Shown one piece after another: positions 3,443 to 28,268 of a DNA stretch of 64,000 bases (the first letter of the stretch is position 1; the number at the start of each line of letters is the position of its first letter). The translations under genes were made by a program, and so were the position numbers. The notes beneath the pieces were generated by a model. The model was given only the letters and a program-made list of their open reading frames with translations, did no database searches and had not been told where the DNA came from. Source of the stretch: Candidatus Anderseniibacteriota bacterium (GTDB lineage: Bacteria; Patescibacteriota; Andersenbacteria; UBA10190); contig JBBDZC010000008.1 in assembly GCA_040900375.1 (NCBI GenBank), positions 2,182 to 66,181 on the forward strand, written 5' to 3'.

Positions 3443-5365
3443 TTAAGCAGGCGCTGGCTGGGTGGAAGGGCGGGGATGGTCAAGTGTCAAATTTTTCTCG
3501 GGGGCTGCGGCGCGCGCGGCATCATCACTCATTAACTGTTGAAATTCCACCTGTTCAATTGTTTCTTTTTCAATCAGCGTGCGGGCGATGAGTTCCAGTT
3601 TGCTGTTGTACCGCTGCAGAATTTCTCGGGCTTTTTCGCGGGCCGTGGCTAGTAGTTTTAAGATCTGCTCGTCAATTTTCGCGGCGGTTGATTCAGAATA
3701 ATTGCGCGCCTCGTGGAGTTCTTTGCCGAGAAAAATATATTCATCTTTCTGGCCAAATGTGACGGGGCCTAAATCCGACATGCCAAATTCAGTCACAATC
3801 CGGCGGGCTAAATTGGTTGCTTTCTTTAAATCGTTACTAGCGCCGGTGGTGATTTCTTGGAATTTATGGAACTCGGCCACGTAGCCGCCCATGAGGGTCG
3901 CTAACTCGCCGTAGAACTGGCTGCGGGTGTGCAGGTGCCGGTCTTCTTCGGGTAACTTGAGCGTGTAGCCGCCAGCATGGCCCCGGGCGATAATTGAGAT
4001 TTTGCGCACGGGGTCGGTGTGCGGCATATGGTAGGCCACCACTGCGTGGCCCGCTTCGTGGAATGCCGTGACAGCTTTTTCGTGGGGAGAGAGTACCTTG
4101 CTGCGCTTTTCTGGTCCTAAGAGCACTTTTTCAATGCTCTCGGCGAGGTTAACCTGGGTAACACTTTCTTGATCTCGCCGCGATGCTAAAATTGCTGCTT
4201 CATTAATGAGGTTTGCGAGATCAGCGCCCGAGAATCCGGGAGTCCGTTCAGCAATATTACGCAAATTAACTTCGGGGGAGAGTGGAACTTTACGAATATG
4301 GATCTTCAAGATCGCTTCACGCTCTTTAATGTCGGGTAGTTCCATTACCACTTGACGATCAAAACGCCCGGGGCGCAAGAGAGCGGGATCTAAGACATCA
4401 GGACGATTAGTGGCGGCTAACACAATCACATTGTCGGTCTGCTCAAAGCCATCCATCTCGACCAAAATTTGATTGAGTGTTTGCTCACGTTCATCGTGCC
4501 CGCCACCTAAGCCTGCGCCCCGCTGCCGGCCCACGGCATCCAACTCATCAATAAAAAGGATAGCGGGGGAATTACGCTTCACTTTGCGGAATAAATCTCG
4601 TACCCGGGAAGCGCCGACGCCCACAAACATTTCCACAAAATCAGAGCCGGAAATGCTAAAGAACGGTACGCTCGCCTCACCGGCAACCGCCCGGGCCATG
4701 AGCGTCTTACCGGTACCAGGAGGGCCAACCAGAAGTACGCCTTTGGGGATGCGCGCACCTAAACGTAGAAACTTCTGGGGGGTCTTTAAGAATTCCACCA
4801 CTTCCTGGAGTTCATTCTTGGCTTCCTCGTTCCCCGCCACATCGTGAAACATGGTGCGCTTTTTACCTTTTTCGGCATCAATGGGGCGAGAGGTCATCTG
4901 CCCAAAAGAAAGTGCGCGATTAGAAGCGCTCTGGGCACTGCGCATCATAAACCACAAAAAGCCGCCGAGTAGTAGGAAAGGTAGGAGCAGTGGCACTAAC
5001 GTCGAAAACCAGAAGCCTACACCGGAGGGTTTTTGGACAGTTAATTTAAGGTTACGCAGTTGCTCTTCGGTCACCCCGAGATTACGAAGAGTTTCGGTTA
5101 CCGAGACATCGCTCTCTTTCTGGGTAATGAGCTTCGTCGGCGAGTTATTGAGGGTCGCGGCTAACTCTTCTTGCTTAACTTCAATACTCTCCACATGACC
5201 AGCCTGGATTTCCTGAACAACTTTAGAGAGGCTGACCGCTTCGGTTTTTTCCAGAGGCCGGCCATAGAGCGCCACCAGGGAGGTGATGGTTAAGAGCACG
5301 AGTAAGACAATGCCAATATTTTTGAGAAAGTTATCTTTACCCATAGGGGAGAAAAAAGATGCCAT
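3443..5365 (-). CDS. ftsH: ATP-dependent zinc metalloprotease FtsH.
   Basis: Two N-terminal TM helices. AAA+ Walker [10 protein letters not shown], Walker [19 protein letters not shown] zinc-binding motif. 640 aa. Confidence 0.95.
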
Positions 5366-5545
5366 ATAATAAGGTAATCAATAGTTATAACCTTGTGGTA
5401 TGCTACCACATTCTAACCAAGATGAAAGTTTATGCGTTATCATGAGAGTGTGTCGAGGATGCCTAAAAAATAGTTAAAAATCAAGAGGTATCGAACAAGA
5501 AAATGGTTACCGCTGGTAATGAAGCGTCTATCCCTCTCGGCTTGG

Positions 5546-6166
5546 TTATTCGCCTTCGTACTCAAAATGAGCCTCAATTTTCACGGGGTGGAAGTACTGC
5601 AACTGCCCAACCGGGCCAATACCTGCCTCGTAAATAGCGGAACGATTGGTCCACTGGTCAGGAATAATGCCCTGTTCATCAGCAATACGGGCTAACTGTT
5701 TAATCCACCCAGCATGGGTAATGCAGCAGATTCTAAGCTTGGCATAGCGAAGAGCGAATTCGCGGAGCGCGTAGCGCACACGCTGGCGCACGTCCTCATC
5801 ATTCTCTCCGCCGAAGGTGCGAAAGTCAAAGGTATCCTTGCCGCGTTGCTCCTGGAAGGTGAGTGGCACTTCTGTCCAGAGCATGCCCTCGTAGTACCCC
5901 ATGGCTTTTTCCCGCAAGAGCGGTGACATGCCTTCTTTGAGTGATTCTTGCAGCAAGAAATTCTTTAAGACAGTACGCGTGGCGATCGCGCGCCCGAGAT
6001 CGGAAGAGAGTAAGACATCAATTTTTTTTTCCCGCAGCAAGGGGGTGAGCGCAGCTAGGTACCGCTCTGTTTCCGAAATTAGCAAGGTGCCTGGGCGTTG
6101 TCCCTGGATTCTGCCTTCTTTGTTTTCAAGGGTCGGTCCGTGGCGAATAAAAAACACTGTCGTCAT
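5546..6166 (-). CDS. Histidine phosphatase family protein (phosphoglycerate mutase-like).
   Basis: N-terminal FIRHGPT (RHG catalytic motif). Later ITHAGWI histidine. 206 aa. Confidence 0.8.
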   Translation of the reverse strand: MTTVFFIRHGPTLENKEGRIQGQRPGTLLISETERYLAALTPLLREKKIDVLLSSDLGRAIATRTVLKNFLLQESLKEGMSPLLREKAMGYYEGMLWTEVPLTFQEQRGKDTFDFRTFGGENDEDVRQRVRYALREFALRYAKLRICCITHAGWIKQLARIADEQGIIPDQWTNRSAIYEAGIGPVGQLQYFHPVKIEAHFEYEGE

Positions 6167-6478
6167 GGGACTATTGTACAGAGTATGCGCTACTTAACCA
6201 ATAATTAAGAGTCAAGGATTAGTCTGGCGATCTCTAAATATAAGAGATGTACGTTAGTGTAAAGAAACAGAGCAATACCGTTCTTGACTGGTTACGAACG
6301 TACATTACCCTATTTTTATGGGCGAAAAACGAATAACTGTTACTGAAAAAACCCAGATTTTTAAAGATGAGACATGAAGGTTAAAGCACCATACAACATG
6401 TGTCGCATTTGTTTAACGAAAGGCAATGATTATTTTAATCTCATTACCGCTACAATAAAATCGATCAGTAATAATTTT

Positions 6479-6553
6479 GTCCCCATAGCTCAACGGACAG
6501 AGCTACGGACTCCTAAGCCGTAGATGCAGGTTCGACTCCTGCTGGGGGCACCA
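6479..6553 (+). tRNA. tRNA-Arg (anticodon CCT), CCA encoded.
   Basis: Cloverleaf folded by hand. Acceptor GTCCCCA/TGGGGGC, D-stem GCTC/GAGC, anticodon loop CTCCTAA (U33, CCT, A37), T-arm GCAGG-TTCGACT-CCTGC, discriminator A, then CCA. Confidence 0.8.
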
Positions 6554-6568
6554 GTAGTAACTTTTTGA

Positions 6569-6787
6569 AAATCAAGAGAATGGAGCGATTTTGTCGGAAA
6601 ACTGCGGAAAGCTCGCCTTGAAGCAGGTTTGCGACAGATAGATATCGCCAAAAAGTTGAAGCGCACGCAATCGCAATCGTATGTGTCCCGTGTCGAGGTT
6701 GGTGAACAGAGGCTAGACATACTAGAATTAAAGAAATTTTCCGACTTATACAAATACAAAAAAGATTTACATTATTTTATCAAATAG
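6569..6787 (+). pseudogene. 5'-truncated XRE-family helix-turn-helix regulator remnant with no in-frame start codon.
   Basis: Frame open from the stop at 6566-6568 to TAG at 6785-6787. Encodes ...SDFVGKLRKARLEAGLRQIDIAKKLKRTQSQSYVSRVEVGEQRLDILELKKFSDLY..., a typical XRE HTH. The nearby ATG at 6580 is in another frame and hits TGA after 13 codons. Confidence 0.45.
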
Positions 6788-6846
6788 CAAAATTAAGTTG
6801 TACACTTGCTACATATTTATTAACTTAACGTGGTATAATAAAAAAT

Positions 6847-7404
6847 ATGAACGAATTTCTTAAGAAAAACTTTGCCATACTACTTGCTTTTATATTGCCG
6901 GTCGCACTAATAGCTATCATTGCTTTGAGTACTTATCTTCCGTCACTTTTTCTCTCCACCAATTATAACTTTATCTATTCATCTTGCACTGATGGTACGA
7001 ATTATTACTATTCATATCGTTGCGACAATTACCTCCAAAAACGCTACTCGGTTGTAAATAACAAATTGGTTGCCAATGCCGTTGATCCAAATCAAGATAC
7101 TGCCCGTATTTTCTTGCATGACACAAAAAAGAACGAGAGCAGAGAGATTACTTTAGAGGAAGCGCAGACACTTTCTCTCAACAGCCTCTTAACTTCTCCT
7201 GACGGAATTACAGTTTCAAGTTACTACGATAGAAATAATGACGGTGACTTCTTCTTTATTTTCGGTGGAGGTTCCTCATCTTATGGTTACTATCTTACAA
7301 AAGGAAAAAGTAGGAGCAAACTCAATCTTATAAATCGCGATGATCAGTATGATTACCGAGACAATTTCCAATTTGTTGGTTGGGTATTGCCCGGAAGAAA
7401 TTAA
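6847..7404 (+). CDS. Hypothetical N-terminally anchored/secreted protein, Tyr/Ser/Asn/Asp-rich, on low-GC island DNA.
   Basis: N-terminal TM FAILLAFILPVALIAIIAL. Strongly AT-rich codon usage, unlike the flanks. 185 aa. Confidence 0.6.
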   Translation: MNEFLKKNFAILLAFILPVALIAIIALSTYLPSLFLSTNYNFIYSSCTDGTNYYYSYRCDNYLQKRYSVVNNKLVANAVDPNQDTARIFLHDTKKNESREITLEEAQTLSLNSLLTSPDGITVSSYYDRNNDGDFFFIFGGGSSSYGYYLTKGKSRSKLNLINRDDQYDYRDNFQFVGWVLPGRN

Positions 7405-7418
7405 CCCCAAATATTTTT

Positions 7419-8399
7419 ATGAGTAAAGAAGAATTGCTACAAGAGCTTTCTACAAAAATAAGTACCGGTGAGATAAGTCGTGAAGAGGTGGTAAGTCGGC
7501 TAAGTTTGGCACCAGTAGCGCAAAGAACAGAAGTAGAGAGTGCGAATAAATCATCGCAATTTTCCGTAACAAAAATGCTATATGTTTTGGGAGCAGCTAT
7601 TGTGATTATTGGTATTGTTATTTTTGTCCATCAAATTTGGGACGACATCGGATCGTTTGGTCGCATATTAGTTACGCTTGGCCTCGGTCTTCTCATTGCA
7701 GCCATTGGATCGTTACTGCTTAAACAAAAACCAGAAGATACTATCGGAACAATTTTTCATTTCATTGGTGGCGTGTTGATTCCTGGAGGTGCCGTGGTAG
7801 CTCTTTCCGAACTTAGCACTCGTGGCGATTGGACAACCGCAATTACATTCGGTGTTATATTCGCATTTTATTTATTGCTAAACGCTATCCATAAAAATGC
7901 TGTTTTAACTTTTTTCACAATTGCAAATGGAACAGCCACTGTTTATCTCATCCTTAATGCAGTTGTTGGAGGTCCGTTCGAGGGATGGTTTGAAATAAAA
8001 GATATATATCAATATTTAACTATGGCCATGGGCGCGAGTTATCTCTTGCTCGCACATGCTTTCCGTGATGGTTGGAACAAGAAACTGATCAGAGTTCTTT
8101 ATTTCTTCGGTATCACTGGTTTTCTTGGGGCTGCGTTTTCACAAGTATTCGATTCAGTTCCTTGGCAAATGCTCTACTTTATTATTGTAATCGGTGGTCT
8201 TGCATTGTCAGTGTATATGAGAAGTCGCAGTATTTTGGTTATGAGCACTCTCTTTCTTATTGCTCATGTCTCATATATCACAAGCGAGTATTTTGCAAAT
8301 TCGCTTGGTTGGCCAATTTCTCTCGTCATTCTCGGTTTTGTATTTATTGGACTTGGATATATTTCAATCAATATTAATAAAAAATATATCGCAAATTAA
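7419..8399 (+). CDS. Hypothetical polytopic membrane protein (about 9 TM) on low-GC island DNA.
   Basis: ATG at 7419 sits 15 nt after the upstream stop. ORF in track 7380..8399. Many hydrophobic helices. AT-rich. Confidence 0.65.
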   Translation: MSKEELLQELSTKISTGEISREEVVSRLSLAPVAQRTEVESANKSSQFSVTKMLYVLGAAIVIIGIVIFVHQIWDDIGSFGRILVTLGLGLLIAAIGSLLLKQKPEDTIGTIFHFIGGVLIPGGAVVALSELSTRGDWTTAITFGVIFAFYLLLNAIHKNAVLTFFTIANGTATVYLILNAVVGGPFEGWFEIKDIYQYLTMAMGASYLLLAHAFRDGWNKKLIRVLYFFGITGFLGAAFSQVFDSVPWQMLYFIIVIGGLALSVYMRSRSILVMSTLFLIAHVSYITSEYFANSLGWPISLVILGFVFIGLGYISININKKYIAN

Positions 8400-8424
8400 A
8401 TTTGCGTGATTCTAATTGGGGAGC

Positions 8425-8466
8425 AATCCCCGCCGTTTTATGATATCGCCTAAAAACGGCGGGGAT
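8425..8466. terminator. GC-rich hairpin (aatccccgccgtttt / aaaacggcggggatt), a bidirectional terminator-like structure ending the low-GC insertion.
   Basis: Perfect 15-nt inverted repeat with a 12-nt loop, flanked by T/A runs on both strands. Confidence 0.55.
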
Positions 8467-8671
8467 TTGTGTGCGCACTGGGCGGACGGGGCAAGCACAA
8501 TACAAATTTGTACCGCGACCGAAGGGAGCGGACGGGGCCGCGCATTAGTTCTTGCCCTCGAAAAAGGTTCGAGCAAAGTGTATGATTACAGCACCACAGA
8601 TCCAAAAAGCCGGTTGGGTTAAATTATGGCTTATTTAAGGCTATTTAATAGGATTACCGTAGCCAGATATT

Positions 8672-8700
8672 GACATTTAGTAAAATATATGATAGTATAG
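8672..8700 (+). promoter_or_regulatory. Sigma70-like promoter (TTGACA, 17 nt, TGaTAGTAT extended -10).
   Basis: TTGACA at 8672-8677. TGnTAGTAT at 8692-8700. Followed by about 300 nt of hairpin-rich leader before the CDS at 9010. Confidence 0.5.
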
Positions 8701-9009
8701 CAAGTTACTAGATCGCCACTTAAAGTGGCAAGAAGCCCGGTAAAGCTAGAGCCTTGAAGCTTAAAATCACTAGATTTTTCCTTAACGCTCTGTCTTGACC
8801 CTCCTACACTGTCGGTCATTCACAACTCCATACACTAAAGACGCGGCGCACCCTACCCGGGATTAAAGACCCGTAAAGTGCGGCGCATGGTCTTACAGTG
8901 GCATGGCTAAAGTAAATCCTTTGGCCTTCCACCTATGGCGGTACACATAGTTATCTATGTGGTCGCCATTAGTGGGAGCTGCCCTAAAATTTTTACAATG
9001 GAGTAAGAC

Positions 9010-9210
9010 ATGAATGCCTACCAGTATCTGCTCGTGCTCTATCATGCTCATGAAAAAGCGTGTCGCTCCCAGCAGGACGTGGACTGGGCCAGGCTGAAGC
9101 GCGTGCTCCGGCTCAAACACAGATGTTGCCCCGGAACAAAATTGCCGGGAGTGCGCGAAATAGCGCGCGAGTGGGCCGAAAAATGTCACGCTCTGCATCG
9201 AAAAAAATGA
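9010..9210 (+). CDS. Small Cys-containing basic protein (66 aa), hypothetical.
   Basis: GGAG RBS 7 nt upstream of the ATG. Followed by a hairpin terminator. Confidence 0.4.
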   Translation: MNAYQYLLVLYHAHEKACRSQQDVDWARLKRVLRLKHRCCPGTKLPGVREIAREWAEKCHALHRKK

Positions 9211-9216
9211 CCATTA

Positions 9217-9249
9217 GGGAGACAACAACATTGTCTGTCTCCTTTCTCT
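9217..9249 (+). terminator. Rho-independent terminator (gggagacaa...ttgtctgtctcc, then T-rich tail).
   Basis: Stem-loop immediately after the TGA at 9208-9210, followed by tttctct. Confidence 0.5.
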
Positions 9250-9358
9250 ACGACTGTCGATTAAGTAAAGTCGCTAGTCGTGGGGGGATCACGGCCTAAA
9301 AGCACTACGCTTTCGCAAAGGCCAATTGGCGCATACTTTACGGCATAAGGAGTGCGAC

Positions 9359-9556
9359 ATGAATGATCCTTGGTGGAAAAAAGTATTGTCCGCCACCGCA
9401 GCGCTGGTGTTGACGTCGAGCCTCGTGCTGGGCATTAAAGCGAGCCTACTCTGGCTTGAGACCGAGTCTCTAACTATGCTACACATGGGAGGCTTACTAC
9501 TCGTCAGTGGCCTAGCTTTCCTGGTAAGCCTTTGGCACCCGGGGAGGAAAGACTAA
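9359..9556 (+). CDS. Small membrane protein (65 aa).
   Basis: AAGGAG RBS, then ATG at 9359 (MNDPWWKKVLSATAALVLTSSLVLGI...). Two predicted TM helices. Confidence 0.5.
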   Translation: MNDPWWKKVLSATAALVLTSSLVLGIKASLLWLETESLTMLHMGGLLLVSGLAFLVSLWHPGRKD

Positions 9557-9567
9557 GGAGAAGTCAC

Positions 9568-9636
9568 ATGGATACCCTTGCGTTGGTTGTGATTGCGTTT
9601 ATGCTGCTGCTGGTATCTGTCCCCATCAGGGCATGA
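9568..9636 (+). CDS. 22-aa hydrophobic micropeptide (MDTLALVVIAFMLLLVSVPIRA) with a perfect Shine-Dalgarno.
   Basis: TAAGGAG at 9554-9560, 7-nt spacer, ATG 9568, TGA 9634-9636. Not in the ORF track because it is shorter than 60 aa. Confidence 0.3.
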   Translation: MDTLALVVIAFMLLLVSVPIRA

Positions 9637-9866
9637 AAAGCTGGCTGCGGTTAAAACGATGGCGACAGCAACGACAGCGGCAGCGCCGGCAACAAGCTGG
9701 CATGCACGTGGTCGCAAATGACAGCCAGCGATCATAGTGTTCTCTGGCCAAAGTTCACCTTTGCAGCGAAGCAGTGATCTTCTTAAATCAAGAAGTCACC
9801 TCTTCGCTGTTTTTTTGTAGATGTAAAAAAGGTGACTTACTGAAAGTCACCGTACAAGCTAACCCG

Positions 9867-10145
9867 TTATTCCTTCAGCACAGTGAAATTACTGCGCAGT
9901 GACAGTACATAACTGGCGTGTTGTTGACTGAAGAGAACTACTTTTTTTCGCCATTGCCATGCTATACCTGCCTCACCTTTTTGTCGGCCAACGCTGCGCG
10001 GATCTAGCACCTCATGCTTCTGCAGCACTATCCTGGCAAGTGGCGAGTGAATATGGCACATCTGGGGAGCATCAATGTTATACAGCACGATAGGTAGTTC
10101 GGGATCAAGTCCCTCTAGCGCGAGGCGTAGTTCCTGTACAGTCAC
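9867..10145 (-). CDS. Hypothetical protein (92 aa).
   Basis: GGAG RBS 6 nt upstream of the ATG (complement of 10146-10165). Hairpin/T-run terminator at about 9786-9840 downstream. Divergent from rnhB. Confidence 0.5.
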   Translation of the reverse strand: MTVQELRLALEGLDPELPIVLYNIDAPQMCHIHSPLARIVLQKHEVLDPRSVGRQKGEAGIAWQWRKKVVLFSQQHASYVLSLRSNFTVLKE

Positions 10146-10235
10146 ATCTGGTCTCCACTAGTAAGCAGGGATAAGATCACCCAAAGAGCAATCAGCTTTT
10201 TAAGCTATCATGAGTGAAGCGATGCCTGCAACGAT

Positions 10236-10871
10236 ATGAAACACGCCCCTACCTTTGAGTATGAACACCTGTACTGGCAACAGGATATAGCGCAGATTGC
10301 CGGCATTGATGAAGCGGGCATGGGAGCCCTCGCCGGACCGGTGGTCGCGGCAGCAGTTATTCTACCCCCAGATTTCTCTGTACCTGGCGTGCGCGACAGC
10401 AAGACACTTTCTGTCCGGCAACGAGAGCTACTTGTTGTCGCTATTCAACAACAGGCCCTCGCCTGGGCAGTTGGCCAAGCGTCCGTGGCTGAAATTACCA
10501 CTCTTAATATTCGCCGGGCTGCCCATCTTGCGATGCAGCGCGCCGTTGATCAACTGCTACCTCAGCCCCTCTTATTATTAGTTGACGGCAACCCCTGCCA
10601 GCCCCATCCGACAATCCCCGCCTCGACTCTCGTTAAGGGTGATATATGTTCAACTTCGATCGCCGCGGCGAGTATTGTTGCCAAGGTTCACCGCGATCAG
10701 ATCATGGTTAAGCTGGACCAGGAATGGCCCCAGTATGGCTTTGCCCAACACAAAGGATACGGCAGTCAGGCGCACCTGGCCGCTTTAGCCACACACGGTG
10801 CCTGTTCCCATCATCGCCCGACTTATGCCCCTGTCGCCCACCTCTTGACACCAGCATCAGAAGTGTCGTAA
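10236..10871 (+). CDS. rnhB: Ribonuclease HII.
   Basis: IAGIDEAGMGALAGPVVAAAV...VDGN... catalytic DEDD-type motifs of RNase HII. 211 aa. Confidence 0.9.
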   Translation: MKHAPTFEYEHLYWQQDIAQIAGIDEAGMGALAGPVVAAAVILPPDFSVPGVRDSKTLSVRQRELLVVAIQQQALAWAVGQASVAEITTLNIRRAAHLAMQRAVDQLLPQPLLLLVDGNPCQPHPTIPASTLVKGDICSTSIAAASIVAKVHRDQIMVKLDQEWPQYGFAQHKGYGSQAHLAALATHGACSHHRPTYAPVAHLLTPASEVS

Positions 10872-10889
10872 GTTTAAATTCCTAAAACT

Positions 10890-11132
10890 ATGGCCGTACC
10901 AAAGAAGCGAACCAGTAAAGCCTCACGCAACATGCGCCGCAGCCACCACGCGAAACAGCTGGTGCGCCTGGCTACCTGCGCCCGTTGTCACCAATTAGTT
11001 CCGAGTCACATAGCTTGTCCCCAGTGCGGCACATACCAGGGCCGTGACGTTATTGATGTGTTGCGCAAATTGAGCAAAAAGGAACGTAAGGCCAGGGAGC
11101 AAGAGCAAGCTGCTCAAGATTCGTCTCGCTAG
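10890..11132 (+). CDS. rpmF: 50S ribosomal protein bL32 (zinc-ribbon form, with C-terminal extension).
   Basis: MAVPKKRTSKASRNMRRSHH N-terminus. CxxC...CxxC zinc ribbon. Confidence 0.85.
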   Translation: MAVPKKRTSKASRNMRRSHHAKQLVRLATCARCHQLVPSHIACPQCGTYQGRDVIDVLRKLSKKERKAREQEQAAQDSSR

Positions 11133-11242
11133 CCGTGGGTAAGTAAAGAGGATAGATACGATTCATTGTCAAATTCTTTTGACAAGACAGGTGTTTTTCG
11201 GTATACAGTCTACAGTCCTGAACGTTCACACTCTAGTATTTT

Positions 11243-11680
11243 ATGGCTAATCGTCATTTAAGTCGCTCCGTCGCCTTACAAAGTCTTTTTGAGTGGGACT
11301 TTAAGGGCCAACGCAAGGGCAGTCTGCAGACGATTACTCGCTACAATATTGCAGAATTTGCGCCCGGCATGGAAGATACTGATTTTATCTTTGATGTCGT
11401 CATGGGGGTACACAAGCATCTGGCCGATATTGATGCGCTCATTGTTGAATCGGCACCGGACTGGCCGCTGGAGCAAATTACTAATGTGGACCGTAATGTC
11501 CTGCGCATTGGTATTTACGAACTCAAGTTTGCGCATGCAGACGACGTACCCCCCAAAGTGGCCATCAATGAGTCAATTGAGTTGGCGAAAACGTTTGGCG
11601 GGGCGAGCTCGGGTAAGTTTGTGAACGGTGTTTTGGGCACTATTTATAAGAAAATGGGGGAGCCACGCAAGAATGAGTAA
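11243..11680 (+). CDS. nusB: Transcription antitermination factor NusB.
   Basis: [20 protein letters not shown]... NusB fold signature. 145 aa. Confidence 0.85.
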
Positions 11681-11783
11681 GTTAATTTTAACTTAAATAA
11701 TCTTTAATTCTTATTTACTAAATCACTTGTGCGATTATTCATTTTCCACCAGCGCCCTGTCCTGGCTGATGAGTAATGAGTAA

Positions 11784-12509
11784 TTGGACTACAGAACACA
11801 CGTTATGAGTCCTGCTAAAGATTTACAGCCATTGGAAAAAAAATTAGGCGCGATATTTACGAACAAGGACATCTTGCGTCAGGCCTTGGTGCATCGCTCG
11901 TATTTAAACGAGAATCCCCGTTTCCCCCTAGGGCACAATGAGCGCCTTGAATTCCTGGGTGACGCAGTCCTAGAGCTGGTGGTGACTGATCATCTTTATC
12001 AGCACTACGACCTATCGGAAGGAGAATTAACTAACCTGCGGGCGGCGATTGTCCGCGGGGAAATGCTCTCGAAAATTGCGGAGGAGTTAGCGCTTGACCT
12101 TTATTTACTCCTCTCACGCGGTGAACGAAAGGATACCGGTAAGGCCCGTCAATATATCCTGGCCAATGCGGTTGAAGCCGTCATTGGTGCACTCTATGTC
12201 GATCAAGGCTACGCTGCGGCGCAAACCCTCATCGATCGGGTGATTATTGCCAAGCTGCCCGAGGTGATTGCACAAGGGCTGCACATCGATACTAAAAGCC
12301 GATTCCAGGAATTAGCCCAGGAAAAATTCCGCATTACGCCAACCTATGAAGTCATGCGTGAGGAAGGCTTGGATCATGCTAAACATTTTGTGGTAGGGGT
12401 ATTCTTAGGTGATAAAAAAATGGGTGAGGGGGCAGGCAGCAGTAAACAGGAAGCGCAACAGCAAGCAGCTAAACAAGCGCTGATACAACTCGAGGAAGCT
12501 GCACTATAG
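11784..12509 (+). CDS. rnc: Ribonuclease III. Alternative start at 11805 (MSPAKD).
   Basis: RNase III signature ERLEFLGDAVLELVV. C-terminal dsRBD (KQEAQQQAAKQAL). Confidence 0.9.
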   Translation: MDYRTHVMSPAKDLQPLEKKLGAIFTNKDILRQALVHRSYLNENPRFPLGHNERLEFLGDAVLELVVTDHLYQHYDLSEGELTNLRAAIVRGEMLSKIAEELALDLYLLLSRGERKDTGKARQYILANAVEAVIGALYVDQGYAAAQTLIDRVIIAKLPEVIAQGLHIDTKSRFQELAQEKFRITPTYEVMREEGLDHAKHFVVGVFLGDKKMGEGAGSSKQEAQQQAAKQALIQLEEAAL

Positions 12510-12620
12510 TTATTTCCCTGTACCTCCGAGCGTGCCTGGCTGAAGTCGAAGTCTTGGTGTTGTATGCTGGGAGATTGGCGAGCTTGACGCTTAGGATAAG
12601 CTCTCTTACTATCACTCCAC

Positions 12621-12953
12621 ATGTTAAAGATGCGTTTACAACGCCGAGGGAAGAACAAGTACGCTACGTACCGCGTCGTCGTGGCCCAGCACCATGCTCC
12701 CATTAAAGGCCGCTTTATTGCTGATGTGGGTTTCTATAATCCCCACACCGATGCGTTTCGGGTTGACGCCACGAAGGTGGCAACGTGGCTCAAACAAGGA
12801 GTACAGCCTTCGGCCACCGTGCACAATTTATTGGTTACCCACGGCTTACTGAAAGCAGAAAAAGTGAAAATTTGGCAACCACCAGCAGTAACTCCACCGC
12901 TAACGGCAGCGGCAGCACCAGTAGCCGACAAACGGAGCGAAACAGGAGTATAA
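12621..12953 (+). CDS. rpsP: 30S ribosomal protein bS16.
   Basis: MLKMRLQRRGKNKYATYRVVVAQHHAPIKGRFIADVGFYNP aligns to the canonical S16 N-terminus. C-terminal Ala/Pro-rich tail. Confidence 0.9.
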   Translation: MLKMRLQRRGKNKYATYRVVVAQHHAPIKGRFIADVGFYNPHTDAFRVDATKVATWLKQGVQPSATVHNLLVTHGLLKAEKVKIWQPPAVTPPLTAAAAPVADKRSETGV

Positions 12954-13148
12954 AGGCTTTTTCGGCGCCAGGTGGGGAAATACCACCGGTGCAGCGCGGC
13001 ATTGATTTCTGGGGAAAACTTTGCTATAGTGATTTTATCCGATCGCAACGTTGACTAAAATCGCTTCGGTCGAACGATTCAGTACTCTTGCAGTACCGGC
13101 GGTTGCATCGGTTGTACACATGTTAATCAGTAACGAAGCTTACGCGAT

Positions 13149-13511
13149 ATGGCAGATGAACGACCAAGCCATGATCAGGAGTTCGTCGAATATGTGGTCA
13201 AATCCATTGTCGACCATCCTGATGATGTCAAAGTTGATCGCACGGTTGATGAGATGGGAGTACTCATTACCCTCTCGGTGAATCCGGAGGACATGGGGCA
13301 AGTTATTGGCCGCCAGGGCGCTACCGCCAAATCAGTGCGCACGCTCCTGCGAGTGATTGGCGCCAAGAATAACGCCCGCGTCAACCTCAAGATTAGTGAG
13401 CCAGAAGGTTCCGAACGCCGCAGTGAAATGCCGAGCGAACCCCCCGCGACACCAAGCGAGGAACAACCTCGCCAATCGGTGGAAGAGGCGATTGATGATC
13501 TTAAGCTGTAG
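13149..13511 (+). CDS. KH-domain RNA-binding protein (YlqC/UPF0109-like, often located between rpsP and trmD) with an acidic C-terminal tail.
   Basis: KH core VIGRQGATAKSVRTLLRVIGAKNNARVNLKI. Confidence 0.8.
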   Translation: MADERPSHDQEFVEYVVKSIVDHPDDVKVDRTVDEMGVLITLSVNPEDMGQVIGRQGATAKSVRTLLRVIGAKNNARVNLKISEPEGSERRSEMPSEPPATPSEEQPRQSVEEAIDDLKL

Positions 13512-13538
13512 CCTGCAACTATACGTTAATAGAGAACA

Positions 13539-13565
13539 ACACCCGCCCCTAGTGGCGGGTGTTTG
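13539..13565 (+). terminator. Rho-independent terminator (acacccgcc-cctagt-ggcgggtgt, then short T-run).
   Basis: 9-bp GC-rich stem right after the KH gene stop. Confidence 0.45.
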
Positions 13566-13592
13566 GTAGGAAGAAATAAGTTTTCCTAAGAT

Positions 13593-13621
13593 TTGGACAA
13601 AGTATACATTCGCTCTATACT
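13593..13621 (+). promoter_or_regulatory. Sigma70-like promoter (TTGGAC, 17 nt, TATACT) upstream of the large surface-protein gene.
   Basis: Hexamers at 13593-13598 and 13616-13621. Confidence 0.45.
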
Positions 13622-13684
13622 TAAAGTCGTAGTCTTAACTTCCTTCAGCCGCAGGGGATATTCTATTATTCTTATTACACTGTC

Positions 13685-15919
13685 ATGCTGACAAATTCTC
13701 CACGCTCTACGCCAAGCTCTTTCTCGCCGCCACCGGCGCAGTCGCGGTCCTTACTGAAGCTCGTTTTAGTGGTGGTGGGCCTGCTGGTGATTGGAGCGGC
13801 AGTATATATTGCTACGACCGCTTTACCCGATGATTCGTCAGTATCGCCTAATCGGGCAACTGAACCGCAGATTCCGCCGCTGGCAACCATGGGAAGTAAT
13901 AACCCCGCTGATTCTGCCGCCATTGCCGCTCACAATGTTTCTTTTGCTGACCTGACTCATGATTTATCACCGGAGCAGGTAATCCAAACCATCAATGAGC
14001 GCTTAGGGTTGAGTACGGCGGATGCAGATAACGACGGATTGTCGAATGCGGCAGAAGTTCTAATTTATGGCACTAACCCGCGCTATTTTGATACTGATGT
14101 TGATGGGGCCACTGACGGCAGCGAAGTCGAAGGCAATACTAATCCACTACTCGCTGCCAATACCTGGACAGACGAAGAAAGAGAAGTAATCAAATCCCGC
14201 ATCGCGTACTGGGGCACTGATTTTTCTCTTTCTCCCATCCAGCGCGCGCAATCAAGTCGCGATATTAATCGTTTAGCTCATGCTGGCCAAATTCGAGTGT
14301 TGCTCGCCCTCTACTACGAGGAACATGCTGCCTACCCCCGCGCTCCTTCCTGGGAACAAGCCTGGGAAATACTCAAGACGAACGATGCCGGCGGAATGTT
14401 CTCGCACGGACACATTAATAGTAAGTGGAAAGAGGGCATGTTTGATCCGCTCAATTTGGCGCCTTTTGTTTACACGTATACCACTGATGCCCAAGGCTCG
14501 GCCTTTACATTTACCTATGCTGTCGAAGGCGAGCAAGTGCTCTACACCTTCACTGACGCGCGCGGAGAGCCGGGGGAAGTGAGTAAGCAGCTGTTGTCCA
14601 ATGTATCTGCACCTGCAGCAGTTAGTCGTATATTGCCACTGCGTCAGGTTAAGCAGATTTTACACGCCCTGGTACCGACAGCGTTAGCGTTACATGTTCC
14701 CGTCACGGATCTCTACGTAGACTCTGTCTATACTACCGATGGGGTACGCGTCGAAGTATACCAATGGGAAGGCAACACCTTCTGGCGCGACTATGCTATG
14801 ACCCACACGGTGGCGCAACTGAAAAATCATTTTCTGATTGCGGCTTCGGTTTACCAACCGCCTGGTTATTGTGATCAGATTGGCTGCTTCTGCAACAATG
14901 GCTCGACGCTCATTTTTGCCCGTAACAATTCCCAGTGCCAGGGCGGCGTCGCGGTTCCCCGCGAGAATACGGTCAAGGCTGGTCAGCCATTTGCGGCAGT
15001 CGTTAACCTCGTGAATACCGGTACCAGTACCTGGCGGACAGATGCTACGCCGCACCGCTTGGGCTCATCTTCGCCTCGCGATAACAATCTCTTCTGGGGC
15101 GTGGATCGTATCAGCTTAGGCAGCCGGGAAATTCATCCACAGGGATCAGTGGACTTCAACTTCACCGCTGTGGCCCCGACCAAACCTGGCACCTACAATT
15201 TTGACTGGGAAATGCTCGAAGAAGGCATCGAGTGGTTTGGCCAAGTCTGTAAAAAGCCATTAACAGTTGTTGCAGCCCAGTGCGCTGACACAGTAGATAA
15301 CGACGGTGATGGAGTCATTGATGCGGCTGATCCTGGTTGTCACACCGATGGCAACGCCAATAATGCTGCTTCGTATGATCCCCTTGATGATGATGAATTT
15401 AACCCTCTACCCTCATCACCGAGTCCTAGTGCTTCACCCAGTGTCAGCCCAAGTTCCTCGCCTTTAAGTGCGAGACCCGGGGTGGACTTAAAGGCAAAGG
15501 CTAAGGACGGAGACGTACCCAGCGACGCACTCACTGTCACCCGCAATAGCCGCGCCACGCTTAGCTGGACAACAACAAATGATGCGACCACGTGTAATGC
15601 CTCGGGAGCTTGGACTGGTAGTAAACTGCCCACAGGCTCGGAACAAACACCGCCGCTGACTGGCACGGTTACCTATACCTTACGCTGCGAAGGATCAGGC
15701 GGTATAAGTGACCCTGATAGCGTAACGGTTACGGTAGTGTCTGCTACATCAACACAATGTAGTGATAGCAAAGATAATGACGGTGACGGCAAGATTGATT
15801 GCGCTGATCCGGGTTGTCGCACCCGACCGGCTGACCCGGCCACGTGTGACCCAACTAAGAATAGTGAAGTAGACCCCGTGTTAAGCCCCGGTCCCATTCA
15901 GGAAACGGACGCGCCGTAG
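13685..15919 (+). CDS. Large (744 aa) cell-surface protein. It has an N-terminal TM anchor, a TSP3-like Ca-binding D-x-D-x-DG repeat module, an Ig-like domain flanked by two Cys-rich C-x-DNDGDG-x-ID-x-DPGC motifs, and Pro/Ser-rich linkers.
   Basis: DADNDGLSNAAEVLIYGTNPRYFDTDVDGATDGSEVEGNTNP. CADTVDNDGDGVIDAADPGC and CSDSKDNDGDGKIDCADPGC. PLPSSPSPSASPSVSPSSSP linker. Confidence 0.7.
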   Translation: MLTNSPRSTPSSFSPPPAQSRSLLKLVLVVVGLLVIGAAVYIATTALPDDSSVSPNRATEPQIPPLATMGSNNPADSAAIAAHNVSFADLTHDLSPEQVIQTINERLGLSTADADNDGLSNAAEVLIYGTNPRYFDTDVDGATDGSEVEGNTNPLLAANTWTDEEREVIKSRIAYWGTDFSLSPIQRAQSSRDINRLAHAGQIRVLLALYYEEHAAYPRAPSWEQAWEILKTNDAGGMFSHGHINSKWKEGMFDPLNLAPFVYTYTTDAQGSAFTFTYAVEGEQVLYTFTDARGEPGEVSKQLLSNVSAPAAVSRILPLRQVKQILHALVPTALALHVPVTDLYVDSVYTTDGVRVEVYQWEGNTFWRDYAMTHTVAQLKNHFLIAASVYQPPGYCDQIGCFCNNGSTLIFARNNSQCQGGVAVPRENTVKAGQPFAAVVNLVNTGTSTWRTDATPHRLGSSSPRDNNLFWGVDRISLGSREIHPQGSVDFNFTAVAPTKPGTYNFDWEMLEEGIEWFGQVCKKPLTVVAAQCADTVDNDGDGVIDAADPGCHTDGNANNAASYDPLDDDEFNPLPSSPSPSASPSVSPSSSPLSARPGVDLKAKAKDGDVPSDALTVTRNSRATLSWTTTNDATTCNASGAWTGSKLPTGSEQTPPLTGTVTYTLRCEGSGGISDPDSVTVTVVSATSTQCSDSKDNDGDGKIDCADPGCRTRPADPATCDPTKNSEVDPVLSPGPIQETDAP

Positions 15920-15967
15920 CAGGCTCGTTGGTTAATCAAAAAACGCATGCTACGCTACGGGAGCATG

Positions 15968-16663
15968 CGTTTTGATATTTTAACCTTATTCCCGGAGAGC
16001 ATTGCTCCCTATACTCGCGCGAGCATTATGGGACGGGCGGTCAGTAGTGGCCACATTGATGTTCGTCTGCACAACATTCGCGACTATGCGCTGGACAAGC
16101 ACCGCACCACTGACGATACACCGTACGGCGGCGGGGCTGGCATGGTGATGAAAGTGGAACCAATTTACGAGGCCTTAGCCCATATTTTGCCTGACCCCGT
16201 CGCGCGCACGAACGAGCAGCACGTTGTATTGCTCTCGGCGCGCGGGCGCCAATTTACGCAGTCGCGCGCCCAGGCATTCGCACAGCAGTTTCGTCACCTT
16301 GTGCTCATCTGCGGGCGGTACGAAGGGGTGGACCAGCGCGTGGCTGATCACCTGGCGGATGAAGAGTTATCGATCGGCCCCTATGTTCTGGCGGGAGGAG
16401 AACTCGCGGCACTCGTCGTGGTAGAAACAGCGGTTCGTCTTATCCCCGGTGTTCTCGGTAATCCTGACTCTCTGGTGGAAGAATCATTCAACCTGCCGGC
16501 GGACAAAGTGTCCCTACCCACGGGGCCGATAGGTGAGTATCCCCAGTACACCAAACCAGAAGAGTATCGCGGTTGGAAAGTGCCGCCGGTGTTGCTCTCG
16601 GGCAATCATGAGAAGATTCAACAGTGGCGCAGAGCGCAGCGTACGGCCACTCCGGAAGCCTAA
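15968..16663 (+). CDS. trmD: tRNA (guanine37-N1)-methyltransferase TrmD.
   Basis: MRFDILTLFPE...GGGAGMVMK..., SPOUT-fold TrmD signature. Track ORF 15947..16663. Confidence 0.9.
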   Translation, partial: RFDILTLFPESIAPYTRASIMGRAVSSGHIDVRLHNIRDYALDKHRTTDDTPYGGGAGMVMKVEPIYEALAHILPDPVARTNEQHVVLLSARGRQFTQSRAQAFAQQFRHLVLICGRYEGVDQRVADHLADEELSIGPYVLAGGELAALVVVETAVRLIPGVLGNPDSLVEESFNLPADKVSLPTGPIGEYPQYTKPEEYRGWKVPPVLLSGNHEKIQQWRRAQRTATPEA

Positions 16664-16723
16664 CTTTTCCCGTATCTCGGCAGCGGCTTTGCACTTTTCA
16701 CGTTACGCTTTACTCTAAAGGCC

Positions 16724-17164
16724 ATGTCCATACCCCTCTTCGTTATTCCAATTATCTGCGGTCTGCTCGCCCAAGCGCTCAAGCCTTTCATCAATCAACA
16801 GTGGTATGCGACAATGTCGCCGGATGGCAAAAAACTACCGCGCTATGGCGGTATGCCGAGCGCCCATTCCGCTTTTGCTTTTTCGATTGCGACGATTATC
16901 GGGGTGACCGATGGTATTTTTTCTACGACCTTTATTATTGCTATGGCGTTGCTCGTGCTGATTCTCGATGATGCCCTGCGCATGCGCATTTTCTTGAGCC
17001 GCCATGGGCAAGCGCTGCGCCGGCTCATCCAAAAACTGCCAGCGGAGGAACGCCGCTCGTATCCCTACTTAGAATCTCGCTTAGGCCATAAACCGCTGGA
17101 AGTTGCCGCTGGTGGGGCCTTAGGCGTTATTGTCTCGCTGCTATTACTCTTCTTCATCCCCTAA
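16724..17164 (+). CDS. Divergent PAP2-like membrane protein (DUF212/YuiD family).
   Basis: GGMPSAHSAFAF motif, characteristic of the DUF212 acid-phosphatase-related family. 3-4 TM. Confidence 0.65.
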   Translation: MSIPLFVIPIICGLLAQALKPFINQQWYATMSPDGKKLPRYGGMPSAHSAFAFSIATIIGVTDGIFSTTFIIAMALLVLILDDALRMRIFLSRHGQALRRLIQKLPAEERRSYPYLESRLGHKPLEVAAGGALGVIVSLLLLFFIP

Positions 17165-17377
17165 GCCTTAACCTTTCGACAAGCTCAAGGTCAATCCGCC
17201 GCTCGACCCCGAGCTCACGGTCGAGGGGAAGTTTATCGAGGATTGACCCATTCGACTTACGCTTCAGGGTCAAGCTACCATTCGACCCTTAAGCGTAACG
17301 GTCGAGGGGGGCCATATCGAAGCTGCATTGTCCCTGCACAATATACATGCTAGACTTTCAGTAAATCTTTCCTTACG

Positions 17378-17938
17378 ATGTCTATGAAGCGCTCCCGCAT
17401 TATCCTCCTCCTGATTGGCTTAAGTGTGCTTATCGCGGTAAGCCTGTTGATTGCTTTCAGCACCGACTCGGACAGTATCCCACGACAACTATCAGCCTTA
17501 ATTTCCTACCCGAACTATTCACCAGCGCCAGTAGTGGGGGCGTGCTACTATTTATCAGTAGGGGTAACCAGCTCTTGCGATGCCCCGCTTACTCAAGCCA
17601 TGTGTGAATCATTAGGTCAATCTAACGGTGGAATATTTCAATGGCATCCAGGAGGAACATGCCCACCTGATCCACTAACCACGACTAACACGTGTGCCCA
17701 AGGTGGTTACGAGCTTTTCCATGATTTCGGAAGTGTCCATTGTACCGATGCGTCGTCTGGCATGACACTTGCAGCAAGCAACTGTCTAAACGATCTTGAC
17801 GCCGAGCTTCAACAAACTGCTTGTCCGGCTGGATGTACCGCTACCTACCTTATAGGACCTGTTATCACCGATGGATATATTTATCACACCACTTCTGAAT
17901 GTACTGTTAGTTGTCAGGCGGTTATTGGGTGTCGATAA
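17378..17938 (+). CDS. Secreted Cys-rich hypothetical protein (N-terminal signal anchor).
   Basis: MSMKRSRIILLLIGLSVLIAVSLLIAF, then a Cys-rich ectodomain with 14 Cys. Confidence 0.55.
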   Translation: MSMKRSRIILLLIGLSVLIAVSLLIAFSTDSDSIPRQLSALISYPNYSPAPVVGACYYLSVGVTSSCDAPLTQAMCESLGQSNGGIFQWHPGGTCPPDPLTTTNTCAQGGYELFHDFGSVHCTDASSGMTLAASNCLNDLDAELQQTACPAGCTATYLIGPVITDGYIYHTTSECTVSCQAVIGCR

Positions 17939-18149
17939 GACGAGTACAAGCACCCACTACTAACCACCGTACACCAAGTGGCATACTGCAGGCCAACGAC
18001 GCTGGTAGCAACGAGAACGTAGCGGTGAAGGAGGAGGCGGAGATAGAAGAAGGGACTAGGTCCATTATATCTCATTAAGTAGGGCTAAATATTGTGAGGG
18101 CGCAAAAAGTCTTTGGGATTAGCTAATAAATTCCGATGCTTAGGCGTGC

Positions 18150-18177
18150 TTGACAGCCAATACTCTATCAGTACAAT
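18150..18177 (+). promoter_or_regulatory. rRNA operon promoter (TTGACA, 16 nt, TACAAT).
   Basis: Consensus hexamers about 330 nt upstream of the mature 16S 5' end. Confidence 0.55.
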
Positions 18178-18506
18178 AATGAAAGTAATCCTTAAGGATT
18201 CGTGATAACTGAAGAAATCCATCAATCCCTAAACGTTGCGAGCAGAAAAGAGAGAGGTGAACGTTTACTTCCCTCTTTTTTGATCGCGAAAGACTGTAAC
18301 TTTACAATTGATGACGCTACAAAAAATCGTTCCTTAAAAGAAGATGCTGGCTGCTTAGCGCAGCACTTCCCAAGGAGCGTTGCAACTGCATCATTCTGCG
18401 CGGTTGCAAACAGACTTACTGTTGTCCCCCGATGACAGTAAGTATGCCCGCCATCTTGCATATTGCGAGATGGCTGAACCATGAACCCGCCAGGGTTTAT
18501 GGTTCT

Positions 18507-19993
<1,487 letters not shown>

Positions 19994-20338
19994 CTAGGGA
20001 TACTGTCCTTGTGGTGTGGTATACCTGCCGCAAGGATCCTAGAAGGTCGAAAATCATTCTTTAAAGAATGATTGCTAGTAGTATGGATAGCACGTCATCC
20101 ATCTTCAAACATGTGATGTGCGCAAGCGGCAGTGTTTTGCAACCGCGCAGAGAAATGCAGTAGTGTCAGTTAAACCTAGCAGCCCGCGTGGGCTGTTTTT
20201 GGTTTACTACACGAAATTCACGAGAAAATTCCTTACCTACCTGCGAACGTCATAATGACTGTTTCCACTTGCTTTACATCACTCGTTTTCTTGCAAAAAG
20301 CTCCAAAAGACGTTTTAATATGCCATACTAGTTATCGA

Positions 20339-20412
20339 GGGTGCGTAGCTCAGTTGGTTAGAGCACTACACTGATAATGTAGAGGTCCCAAGTTCGACTC
20401 TTGGCGCACCCA
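20339..20412 (+). tRNA. tRNA-Ile (anticodon GAT) in the rRNA spacer. CCA not encoded.
   Basis: GGGTGCG acceptor. Anticodon arm CTACA-CTGATAA-TGTAG. T-arm CCAAG-TTCGACT-CTTGG. Confidence 0.85.
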
Positions 20413-20501
20413 CCCTACTACTCAACTGGCCTTTTTCCAGGAAACCCTGTTGTCTACCTTCTGGCAGTTTACTGGTGAGGCAAGTGCGCGGTGGGTAACT
20501 A

Positions 20502-24749: not shown

Positions 24750-28268
<3,519 letters not shown>

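Follow-up and report, generated by a model that had tools for sequence, protein, structure and literature searches.

In a 64,000-nucleotide (nt) stretch of a contig from a Candidatus Anderseniibacteriota genome (JBBDZC010000008.1, assembly GCA_040900375.1), here called the window, a block of AT-rich DNA lies between an arginine transfer RNA (tRNA) gene, tRNA-Arg(CCT), and rnhB, which encodes RNase HII. It carries a defunct regulator gene of the XRE family, two genes for membrane proteins, which we call open reading frames (ORFs) A and B, and a hairpin. A model that had read the letters without database searches described the block as a probable decayed integrated element; the tRNA, the XRE frame, A, B and the hairpin all exist as described in this sequence-only reading (ARAGORN, Rfam, Pfam and ORFs). 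Our analysis indicates that the block is probably a horizontally acquired cassette. The features of the locus, from left to right, are as follows (GC, guanine–cytosine content).

5546-6166, minus strand: gene for a His_Phos_1 phosphatase, the conserved left flank (Pfam His_Phos_1, E = 1.6e-23).

6275-6478, plus strand: remnants of an ORF with helix-turn-helix (HTH) and LAGLIDADG-like parts, with about 470 nt of its middle deleted (blastn and tblastx against the intact ORF of locus L024).

6479-6553, plus strand: intact tRNA-Arg(CCT), with CCA encoded (ARAGORN; Rfam, 61.7 bits).

6554-6579, plus strand: left junction of the insertion, which holds TTTTTGAAAATC at 6562-6573; homology to relatives ends at the tRNA end.

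6580-6787, plus strand: pseudogene of the XRE family (HTH_3), frameshifted by +1 through a surplus T in the run 6589-6592 (translations; HTH_3 after repair).

6830-6838, plus strand: putative extended -10 promoter element TGgTATAAT, read from the sequence, 8 nt upstream of the start of ORF A.

6847-7404, plus strand: ORF A, a bitopic membrane protein of 185 amino acids (aa) with an N-terminal transmembrane (TM) helix at residues 9-36; no Pfam or NCBIfam family.

7419-8399, plus strand: ORF B, a 326-aa polytopic membrane protein (DUF2157, PF09925, and an AlphaFold2 (AF2) model).

8416-8511, plus strand: conserved 3′ element, a 15-bp hairpin and a conserved tail of about 45 nt (inverted repeat, fold and conservation).

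8512-10235, no strand assigned: DNA absent from relatives, of host-like composition (49% GC), with small ORFs of 60-101 aa.

10236-10871, plus strand: rnhB, the conserved right flank (Pfam RNase_HII; tblastx homology is back from 10248).

The site was compared with its counterparts in five Andersenbacteria relatives (L023-L027; L-numbers denote loci fetched from genomes and metagenomes), which were found through the His_Phos_1 gene, whose named best matches are all Andersenbacteria. The order and relative orientation of His_Phos_1, tRNA-Arg(CCT) and rnhB are the same in all five, and the His_Phos_1 orthologues beside tRNA-Arg and rnhB are 65-74% identical to the window protein. From the 3′ end of tRNA-Arg to the ATG of rnhB the distance is 0-1 nt in three relatives (L025, L026 and L027), 216 nt in L023 and 573 nt in L024, where it contains one 74-aa ORF; in the window it is 3,682 nt (6554-10235). 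No part of 6554-10247 resembles L023-L027 by blastn or tblastx, although the flanks do align. Because tRNA-Arg sits between His_Phos_1 and rnhB in all five relatives, it is a resident gene outside the insert, and the insertion starts exactly at its 3′ end. The comparison with genomes that lack the insertion, which the sequence-only reading had proposed, thus separates gaps of 0-573 nt from one of 3,682 nt, and this difference is the strongest support for what the aligned loci indicate to be a genuine horizontal insertion at this site. Protein identities run the same way: the best identity of His_Phos_1 elsewhere is 72-74% (among 5.8 billion proteins), whereas for A and B the copies found in unrelated contigs (L003, L004, L019 and L022) reach 84-86%.

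A Logan assembly of SRR27977660 is free of mismatches to window positions 4445-18399, a range that takes in both junctions and the XRE frameshift; it may share reads with the metagenome-assembled genome (MAG), and is in that respect not fully independent. Given zero differences, a chimeric join at the cassette junctions is unlikely. Proteins identical to A and B are recorded at NCBI for a MAG labelled Candidatus Andersenbacteria, ORF A under the locus tag WEA04_01430.

The base composition of the block is foreign to the window. The GC content of 6554-8470 is 37.8%, against 51.2% for the whole window, so that the contrast of about 35% with about 55% given by the sequence-only reading has the right direction and an overstated size. 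The dip (35-40%) spans about 6200-8400 and begins upstream of the tRNA, where 6167-6478 has 34% GC. The host codon table draws on 36 ORFs of the window with 150 aa or more, whose GC content at third codon positions (GC3) is 0.553 ± 0.060 with a minimum of 0.419; z scores were computed against 42 window ORFs of at least 120 aa (GC3 mean 0.558, standard deviation 0.058). The lowest host values (0.42-0.43, mildly atypical) belong to window ORFs at 49960-52397 and 17378-17938. On this scale ORF A (GC3 0.362) has a z score of -3.4 and ORF B (0.307-0.310) one of -4.3, and the foreign codon usage that had been claimed for the two genes is borne out by the codon scan. Under host codon usage A and B would be expected to have 43% and 47% GC; about half of the GC deficit is therefore due to amino-acid composition and about half to codon choice. 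Only 6554 to about 8511 is compositionally foreign.

Genes related to A and B are common in Patescibacteria. A word-indexed protein search returned 598 homologues of B and 562 of A; within the top 120 for either protein, identity to the query is 55-100% and for the most part 70% or higher. Where hosts are named, they belong to many Patescibacteria groups: Sungbacteria, Paceibacterota, Nomurabacteria, Taylorbacteria and Pacebacteria. With a profile of ORF A, matches extend to 1013 representatives at the 50% cluster level (E ≤ 1e-3), nearly all of 170-200 aa, and no Pfam family was found in the 10 distant representatives scanned. All listed homologues of B have a precomputed PF09925 assignment. 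Searches of the cargo proteins, which had been recommended as a check, thus place B in DUF2157 and A in no Pfam family, and reveal a widespread Patescibacteria pair that is not phage-specific.

We surveyed the context of the pair in 42 loci from genomes and metagenomes. Wherever upstream DNA is present, a homologue of A lies directly upstream of the homologue of B. Around 20 loci, some of them duplicates of one contig and at least 15 distinct, have the same arrangement, which we call the resident context: ychF GTPase, S-adenosylmethionine (SAM) methyltransferase, A, B, leuS, TPR protein, murJ and ABC transporter. No tRNA lies within 3 kb upstream of A or within 1.5 kb downstream of B in these resident copies. 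In most Paceibacteria-type genomes, then, A–B is an ordinary locus for envelope proteins and is probably inherited vertically. The sequence-only reading had expected its proposal to fail if related genomes carried the two genes, with the same GC content, in a conserved context without a tRNA; such a context exists in at least 15 distinct loci elsewhere, whereas in the window's own lineage the site is empty, so the objection goes only half way.

In a neighbour-joining tree of concatenated A and B, the window copy belongs to a monophyletic group, the wandering clade, together with L003, L004, L019/L022, L020/L021, L028/L043-46, L029, L030, L047/L048 and the basal L013. The clade is nested within copies of the resident context (ychF–methyltransferase on one side and leuS on the other) and occupies at least eight different genomic contexts; its B proteins are 72-86% identical to window B. 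GC3 values of hosts and cassettes are given below, with z scores relative to the host.

Wandering clade overall: host GC3 0.29-0.61; cassette GC3 0.24-0.39 (basal L013, 0.46).

This window: host 0.56; cassette 0.31 / 0.36; z -4.3 / -3.4.

L022: host 0.60; cassette 0.34 / 0.37; z -5.8 / -5.2.

L029: host 0.61; cassette 0.39 / 0.33; z -3.2 / -4.0.

L047: host 0.48; cassette 0.32 / 0.33; z -4.5 / -4.0.

L028/L043 and L020: host about 0.30; cassette matches the host; z about -1.2 to +0.3.

Resident copies: host 0.31-0.42; cassette matches the host; z -0.1 to -1.7.

Because the GC3 of the cassette does not track that of its host, and because the site is empty in relatives, there is good evidence from composition and context that the wandering subclade spreads horizontally from low-GC donors.

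Against nine other members (synonymous divergence, dS, 0.8-1.9), the ratio of non-synonymous to synonymous divergence (dN/dS) is 0.05-0.12 for A and 0.07-0.16 for B: the two genes are under strong purifying selection. ORF A has an N-terminal TM anchor and an extracytoplasmic, β-rich domain with two invariant cysteines. The match of ORF B to PF09925 covers residues 22-142 (E = 3e-12; 46.9 bits versus a cutoff of 32.4), its AF2 model has 10 TM-length helices, indicating 9-10 TM segments, and it keeps every alignment-invariant column. The anchored protein and the 9-TM protein of the sequence-only reading are therefore recognizable in A, with its N-terminal helix, and B. The AF2 models are of medium confidence (predicted local distance difference test scores of 66 and 67). 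Given the strict gene adjacency, co-conservation and membrane topology, the likeliest arrangement seems to us an envelope complex of A and B, in which A would be the bitopic component with a disulfide-stabilized extracytoplasmic domain and B its polytopic partner. Homologues of B of 439-449 aa in the resident context (L014, L015, L016, L017 and L040) are about 120 aa longer, and in tblastn they align twice with query residues ~112-245; a set of TM helices may have been duplicated within the protein.

Loci with DUF2157 usually have DUF4401/GDYXXLXY neighbours. Such neighbours are absent here, and ORF A itself was rejected as a GDYXXLXY protein: PF14345 was absent from the matches of 24 family members (E ≤ 10) and from those of 10 distant representatives (E ≤ 1). 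The best Foldseek match of B in the PDB, chain X of 7b9f (the mycobacterial ESX-5 pore complex), was discarded (E = 0.21, TM score 0.44), and sequence-profile matches of ORF A in the PDB were noise only. The only functional lead for A–B is a classification of DUF2157 with the N-terminal four-TM domain of LiaI/LiaF from envelope-stress systems (PMC11237479). ORF B resembles these proteins in the PF09925 match of residues 22-142 but has about six TM helices more than they do and lacks a Toastrack/DUF2154 domain, and no PspA/LiaH or LiaRS partner is encoded nearby.

The sequence-only reading had suggested a superinfection-exclusion or membrane-defence module as cargo. Whatever its route of arrival, A–B as an anti-phage or superinfection-exclusion module would be consistent with membrane proteins of mobile distribution next to an XRE-type regulator, and with the grouping of DUF2157 among LiaI/LiaF-TM envelope-stress domains. 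The suggestion fared poorly: neither A nor B matches a PADLOC or PHROGs family, and XRE has generic HTH matches only; three scans of IMG/VR found no viral contig that encodes A, B or XRE; no structural analogue was found; and most members of the family, in their housekeeping surroundings, have the appearance of core envelope genes. We regard a defence function as improbable.

The gene that precedes A is a regulator in ruins. Its HTH frame is open from 6569 to the stop at 6785-6787 and the first in-frame ATG, GTG or TTG within it is the TTG at 6629. Upstream of that codon, at 6580, an ATG opens the sequence MERF, which lies in the +1 frame with respect to the HTH domain. Dropping one T from the TTTT run at 6589-6592 joins this ATG to the HTH frame and restores a complete 68-aa protein, which matches HTH_3 (PF01381; E = 6.5e-9; 36.1 bits versus a cutoff of 23) and whose best PHROGs matches are transcriptional repressors and regulators of phages. 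The gene had been called start-less and 5′-truncated; it is a dead regulator without an in-frame start, as claimed, but its translations indicate full length with a frameshift rather than a truncation. The frameshift may stem from a homopolymer sequencing error. Homologous XRE remnants lie upstream of A in L003, L019, L028, L029, L043-46 and L047, and the state of the gene differs between loci.

This window: +1 frameshift.

L003: about the first 19 codons gone, with an in-frame stop upstream.

L019: about 45 nt left.

L022: nothing left.

L028 and L043-46: 29-53 codons recognizable, at 40-45% identity.

L047: 14 codons.

L029: C-terminal remnant only.

No intact copy was found among the wandering-clade loci examined. 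XRE has thus decayed independently, with a different lesion in each lineage, which implies that the copy acquired by every lineage was better preserved and afterwards served no purpose there. A regulator relevant only in a donor or vehicle would match this pattern. As a single HTH_3 domain of 68 aa with PHROGs repressor and regulator matches, the repaired protein resembles phage XRE repressors of the Cro/CI type, from which it differs in being frameshifted here and decayed in every related cassette examined, with no Cro or antirepressor partner and no phage context.

Comparison among cassettes sets the limits of what has moved. Nucleotide homology with other cassettes starts at 6647, within XRE, for L003 and at 6816-6833, in the promoter region, for most others, and it stops at 8478-8511; the transferable unit is therefore XRE, promoter, A, B and hairpin, about 2 kb in all. 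The element TGgTATAAT is conserved in L019, L022, L003 and L029. On the far left, the 12-mer TTTTTGAAAATC also abuts the 3′ end of the tRNA-Ser upstream of the cassette in L029 (2828-2839), a coincidence of unproven significance, and a close variant stands in L003 (17-30), preceded at the contig start by CTCCGCCA, which may be a tRNA 3′ end. We considered TTTTTGAAAATC as a common cassette end of the window copy and L029 and dropped it, as the left junctions align too poorly.

At the right end, a perfect 15-nt inverted repeat (8425-8439 and 8453-8467) folds at -39.2 kcal/mol (z = -2.7). Across six sequences 95.5% of the cells in the stem are paired, and two pairs show compensatory changes; the element is conserved in L003, L004, L018 and L028/L044. 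The stem is followed by only TTT and then GTGTG, and a terminator scan flagged sub-stems only. The hairpin element, a probable terminator, forms the right-hand limit of the foreign cassette. A second copy in L030 (1194-1282; 87-93% identity) follows an unrelated PsbP_2-like gene, and the element may be a shared or mobile terminator-like sequence. The sequence-only reading had ended the block at the hairpin; the hairpin is there, yet foreign composition reaches about 8511 and relatives also lack 8512-10235. This further 1.7 kb is lineage-specific DNA of host-like composition, which may have come with the cassette, before it or after it. It has no Pfam, PHROGs or PADLOC match in any frame and no homology to L023-L027 or to other fetched loci, apart from 36 nt (8558-8593) that are 89% identical, in reverse orientation, to sequence upstream of a homoserine-dehydrogenase gene in L028 and L044-46. 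A near-consensus, promoter-like TTGACA-17-TAGTAT lies at 8670-8698, with no obvious gene for about 300 nt after it.

The position of the window cassette beside a tRNA gene recurs. A same-strand tRNA lies just upstream of A, at 66-618 nt, in three independent wandering contexts: tRNA-Arg(CCT) at 294 nt in the window, tRNA-Leu(GAG) at 66 nt in L022 and 618 nt in its sibling L019, and tRNA-Ser(GGA) at 232 nt in L029. Three more contexts have a same-strand tRNA 2-8 kb upstream (Ser-GGA in L020 and in L004, Val-TAC in L043-46). By a rough estimate for a genome of some 0.8 Mb and some 45 tRNA genes, a few per cent of genes would by chance have a same-strand tRNA no more than about 700 nt upstream; three adjacent tRNAs in about six to eight independent contexts are therefore unlikely to have arisen by chance. 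In L019, a 121-aa ORF between tRNA-Leu and the cassette (8870-9235) has 74% nucleotide identity over 116 nt to an ORF downstream of B in L022 (7535-7852), and related sequences may flank the cassette in this lineage.

The insertion, the foreign composition, the nested phylogeny with its multiple contexts and the purifying selection on A and B that the above data establish are best joined, with a probability of roughly 70%, in the following reading: a self-contained cassette of the wandering A–B subclade, from 6554 to about 8511, was acquired horizontally and placed between the 3′ end of tRNA-Arg(CCT) and rnhB. The cassette would consist of the dead XRE gene, the extended -10 promoter, A, B and the terminator-like hairpin. 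The derived wandering subclade would move between hosts, keep a donor-like low GC3 and often land downstream of tRNA genes; it would once have travelled with its XRE regulator, which decays independently after each arrival. A and B could then be expressed from the cassette promoter up to the hairpin, probably constitutively with XRE dead, and may act jointly in the cell envelope. Entry may have used the tRNA flank as a recombination hot spot, either through a tRNA-targeting integrase that acted in trans or has since been lost, or through repair or illegitimate recombination of imported DNA.

Several observations weigh against this reading. The relatives with a smaller gap are distant (55-60% identity in RNase HII and 65-72% in His_Phos_1), so the insertion is only loosely dated, and the dS to the nearest cassette copies is already 0.8-1.0, so recent transfer is not demonstrable. 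In every locus the cassette is 2-7 GC points below its own host; part of the dip is therefore intrinsic to the A and B proteins, and the persistently low GC3 could in part reflect selection rather than recency. The taxonomy of the other cassette hosts consists of MAG labels only, and horizontal transfer within the wandering clade is deduced from composition and context. ORF A may be impaired: it lacks an acidic loop of 12-13 aa (consensus SDxDKIPDINENY, calcium-binding-like) that is present in all 23 other aligned members and maps to window 7084-7098, near residue 83. Foldseek found no structural analogue of A or B in the PDB at E ≤ 0.001. As to the route of entry, no target-site duplication was found; the 25-nt 3′ end of the tRNA has no direct repeat in the window with up to 3 mismatches; and no integrase, recombinase, transposase, phage or conjugation family was detected in any reading frame of the inserted DNA (Pfam searched with all ORFs, with XRE, A and B, and with every stop-to-stop frame in 8400-10300 that reaches 45 aa).

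The compositional and dating points, together with the presence of a widespread pair that usually resides among housekeeping genes, would also be expected if there had been no horizontal transfer at all, an ancestral A–B having been relocated by rearrangement and its low GC, about half of which is explained by amino-acid composition, arising from membrane-protein content or selection on expression. Such a history would leave unexplained the much smaller gap at the site in five relatives, a GC3 3.4-4.3 standard deviations below the host when resident copies match theirs, and 84-86% identity to copies of very different context and GC3 compared with no more than 74% for the flanking host gene. 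The wandering clade is, moreover, nested and not basal. We give relocation without transfer almost no credence.

The points about entry bear on a different alternative, close to the original proposal: that the whole of 6554-10235 is a decayed self-integrating element (a prophage, an integrative and conjugative element (ICE) or an integrative and mobilizable element) in the 3′ end of tRNA-Arg, which has lost its integrase and right attachment (att) site, attR, and of which XRE was the repressor and A–B a moron-type cargo. An insertion that begins exactly at the tRNA 3′ end, foreign composition and an XRE-type regulator whose best PHROGs matches are phage repressors and regulators are what such an element would leave, and the independent decay of XRE suggests a source in which it was still needed. 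Related genomes also hold att-like repeats: a 23-nt direct repeat of the tRNA-Val 3′ end in L043 (3446-3468) and a 16-nt direct repeat of the tRNA-Ser 3′ end in L020 (7277-7292), each with 1 mismatch and about 135 nt downstream. These may be scars of integrase activity at those tRNAs, and tRNA-directed integration therefore seems active in such genomes. However, neither repeat brackets the cassette: both are found upstream of it, with only about 135 nt between tRNA and repeat. At the present site there is no recombinase trace in any frame, no phage or conjugation gene and no att repeat: the direct repeat of the tRNA 3′ end that was to be looked for downstream does not exceed chance, the best match being 11 nt inside ORF B, which 2-13% of shuffles equal or beat. 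Repeats above chance were likewise missing in L019, L022, L029, L004, L023 and L024, and the gene tables of about ten other cassette contexts contain no adjacent integrase. With no IMG/VR contig that carries A, B or XRE, and with 8512-10235 host-like in GC, we find this alternative unlikely, although deserving of consideration. Of the original proposal of an element integrated at a tRNA, insertion at the 3′ end stands and the machinery of a phage, ICE or island does not; the label of a decayed phage or ICE draws only on position and XRE.

A further possible route runs through the DNA upstream of the tRNA. The HTH and LAGLIDADG-like remnants match the L024 ORF at 71% (6275-6386) and 86% (6398-6551) by blastn and tblastx, and the C-terminal remnant runs into the 5′ half of tRNA-Arg, to 6523. 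The ORF is intact in L024 (9160-9800, minus strand), where its match to LAGLIDADG_3 is weak (E = 0.0048, below the cutoff). In L019 a LAGLIDADG_3 ORF (8039-8689; E = 1.3e-8) stands directly upstream of the tRNA-Leu that precedes the cassette; it is absent from the sibling L022. LAGLIDADG-like ORFs or remnants beside tRNA-Arg here and tRNA-Leu in L019, missing in L022, suggest that tRNA flanks are generally unstable in such genomes. The tRNA-Arg(CCT) of the window is of the same sequence type as that of L024 in the D-arm and anticodon stem, a type distinct from that of L023, L025, L026 and L027 and co-occurring with the LAGLIDADG-like ORF; the L024 tRNA-Arg has a mismatch in the 3′ strand of its acceptor stem.

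Breaks made by a tRNA-associated LAGLIDADG homing endonuclease, the repair of which captured or co-converted foreign DNA beside the tRNA, would accommodate the remnants directly upstream of tRNA-Arg, the ORF before tRNA-Leu in L019 and the tRNA type common to the window and L024. The pattern is broken in several places: the L024 match is below the cutoff, the L024 and L019 proteins have no detectable homology to each other, L024 has the endonuclease-like ORF and no cassette, and L022 and L029 have the cassette and no such ORF. We consider this route very improbable.

Among known systems, the horizontally acquired cassette is closest to tRNA-associated genomic islets and islands, with which it has in common foreign DNA that starts at a tRNA 3′ end, a site that is empty or smaller in relatives, and cargo with a regulator. 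It differs in the absence of an integrase, of flanking direct repeats and of a partial tRNA at the far end, and in its small size of only about 2 kb of foreign DNA. The cis-mobilizable elements (CIMEs) of Streptococcus thermophilus are integrase-less derivatives of integrative elements and are defined by att sites on both sides. Like a CIME, the cassette is a small cargo that lacks genes for recombination and conjugation and occupies the type of site that integrative elements use, and mobilization in trans is conceivable; unlike a CIME, it has no detectable att site on either side. In the literature we came across no account of the cassette, nor of islands at tRNA flanks in Patescibacteria.

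How DNA moves and genes flow within the Candidate Phyla Radiation is poorly mapped, and this locus is a clean case of a horizontal insertion at a tRNA flank in Andersenbacteria, resolved to the base pair. Taken singly, the finding is a tidy and fairly ordinary genomic islet; the recurrent association of an integrase-less cassette with tRNAs might be more unusual. A–B is an uncharacterized pair, strongly conserved and very widespread, with two modes, resident by leuS and wandering by tRNAs; should the two proteins form an envelope complex, the lateral spread of the pair could bear on the surface biology of episymbionts. A bolder and quite unlikely extension is that XRE–A–B, together with the hairpin, is a recombinase-less Patescibacteria cassette derived from a core envelope pair, which has repeatedly colonized tRNA 3′ flanks (Arg-CCT, Leu-GAG and Ser-GGA) in unrelated hosts through borrowed integrases or tRNA-directed endonuclease breaks; the proteins it spreads would then change the interaction of an episymbiont with its host or phages, and the universal decay of XRE would be the signature of a one-way 'delivery' regulator.

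Elsewhere in the window, no housekeeping gene is common to its 64 kb and the other cassette loci, and Rfam at a relaxed threshold found no non-coding RNA other than the tRNA in 6100-10300. The ribosomal RNA operon (18505-28597) has unusually long spacers: 1.9 kb separate tRNA-Ile from tRNA-Ala, and a further 2.3 kb follow tRNA-Ala before the 23S gene begins. The 23S gene spans 3,525 nt, with a group I intron at 27552-27862.

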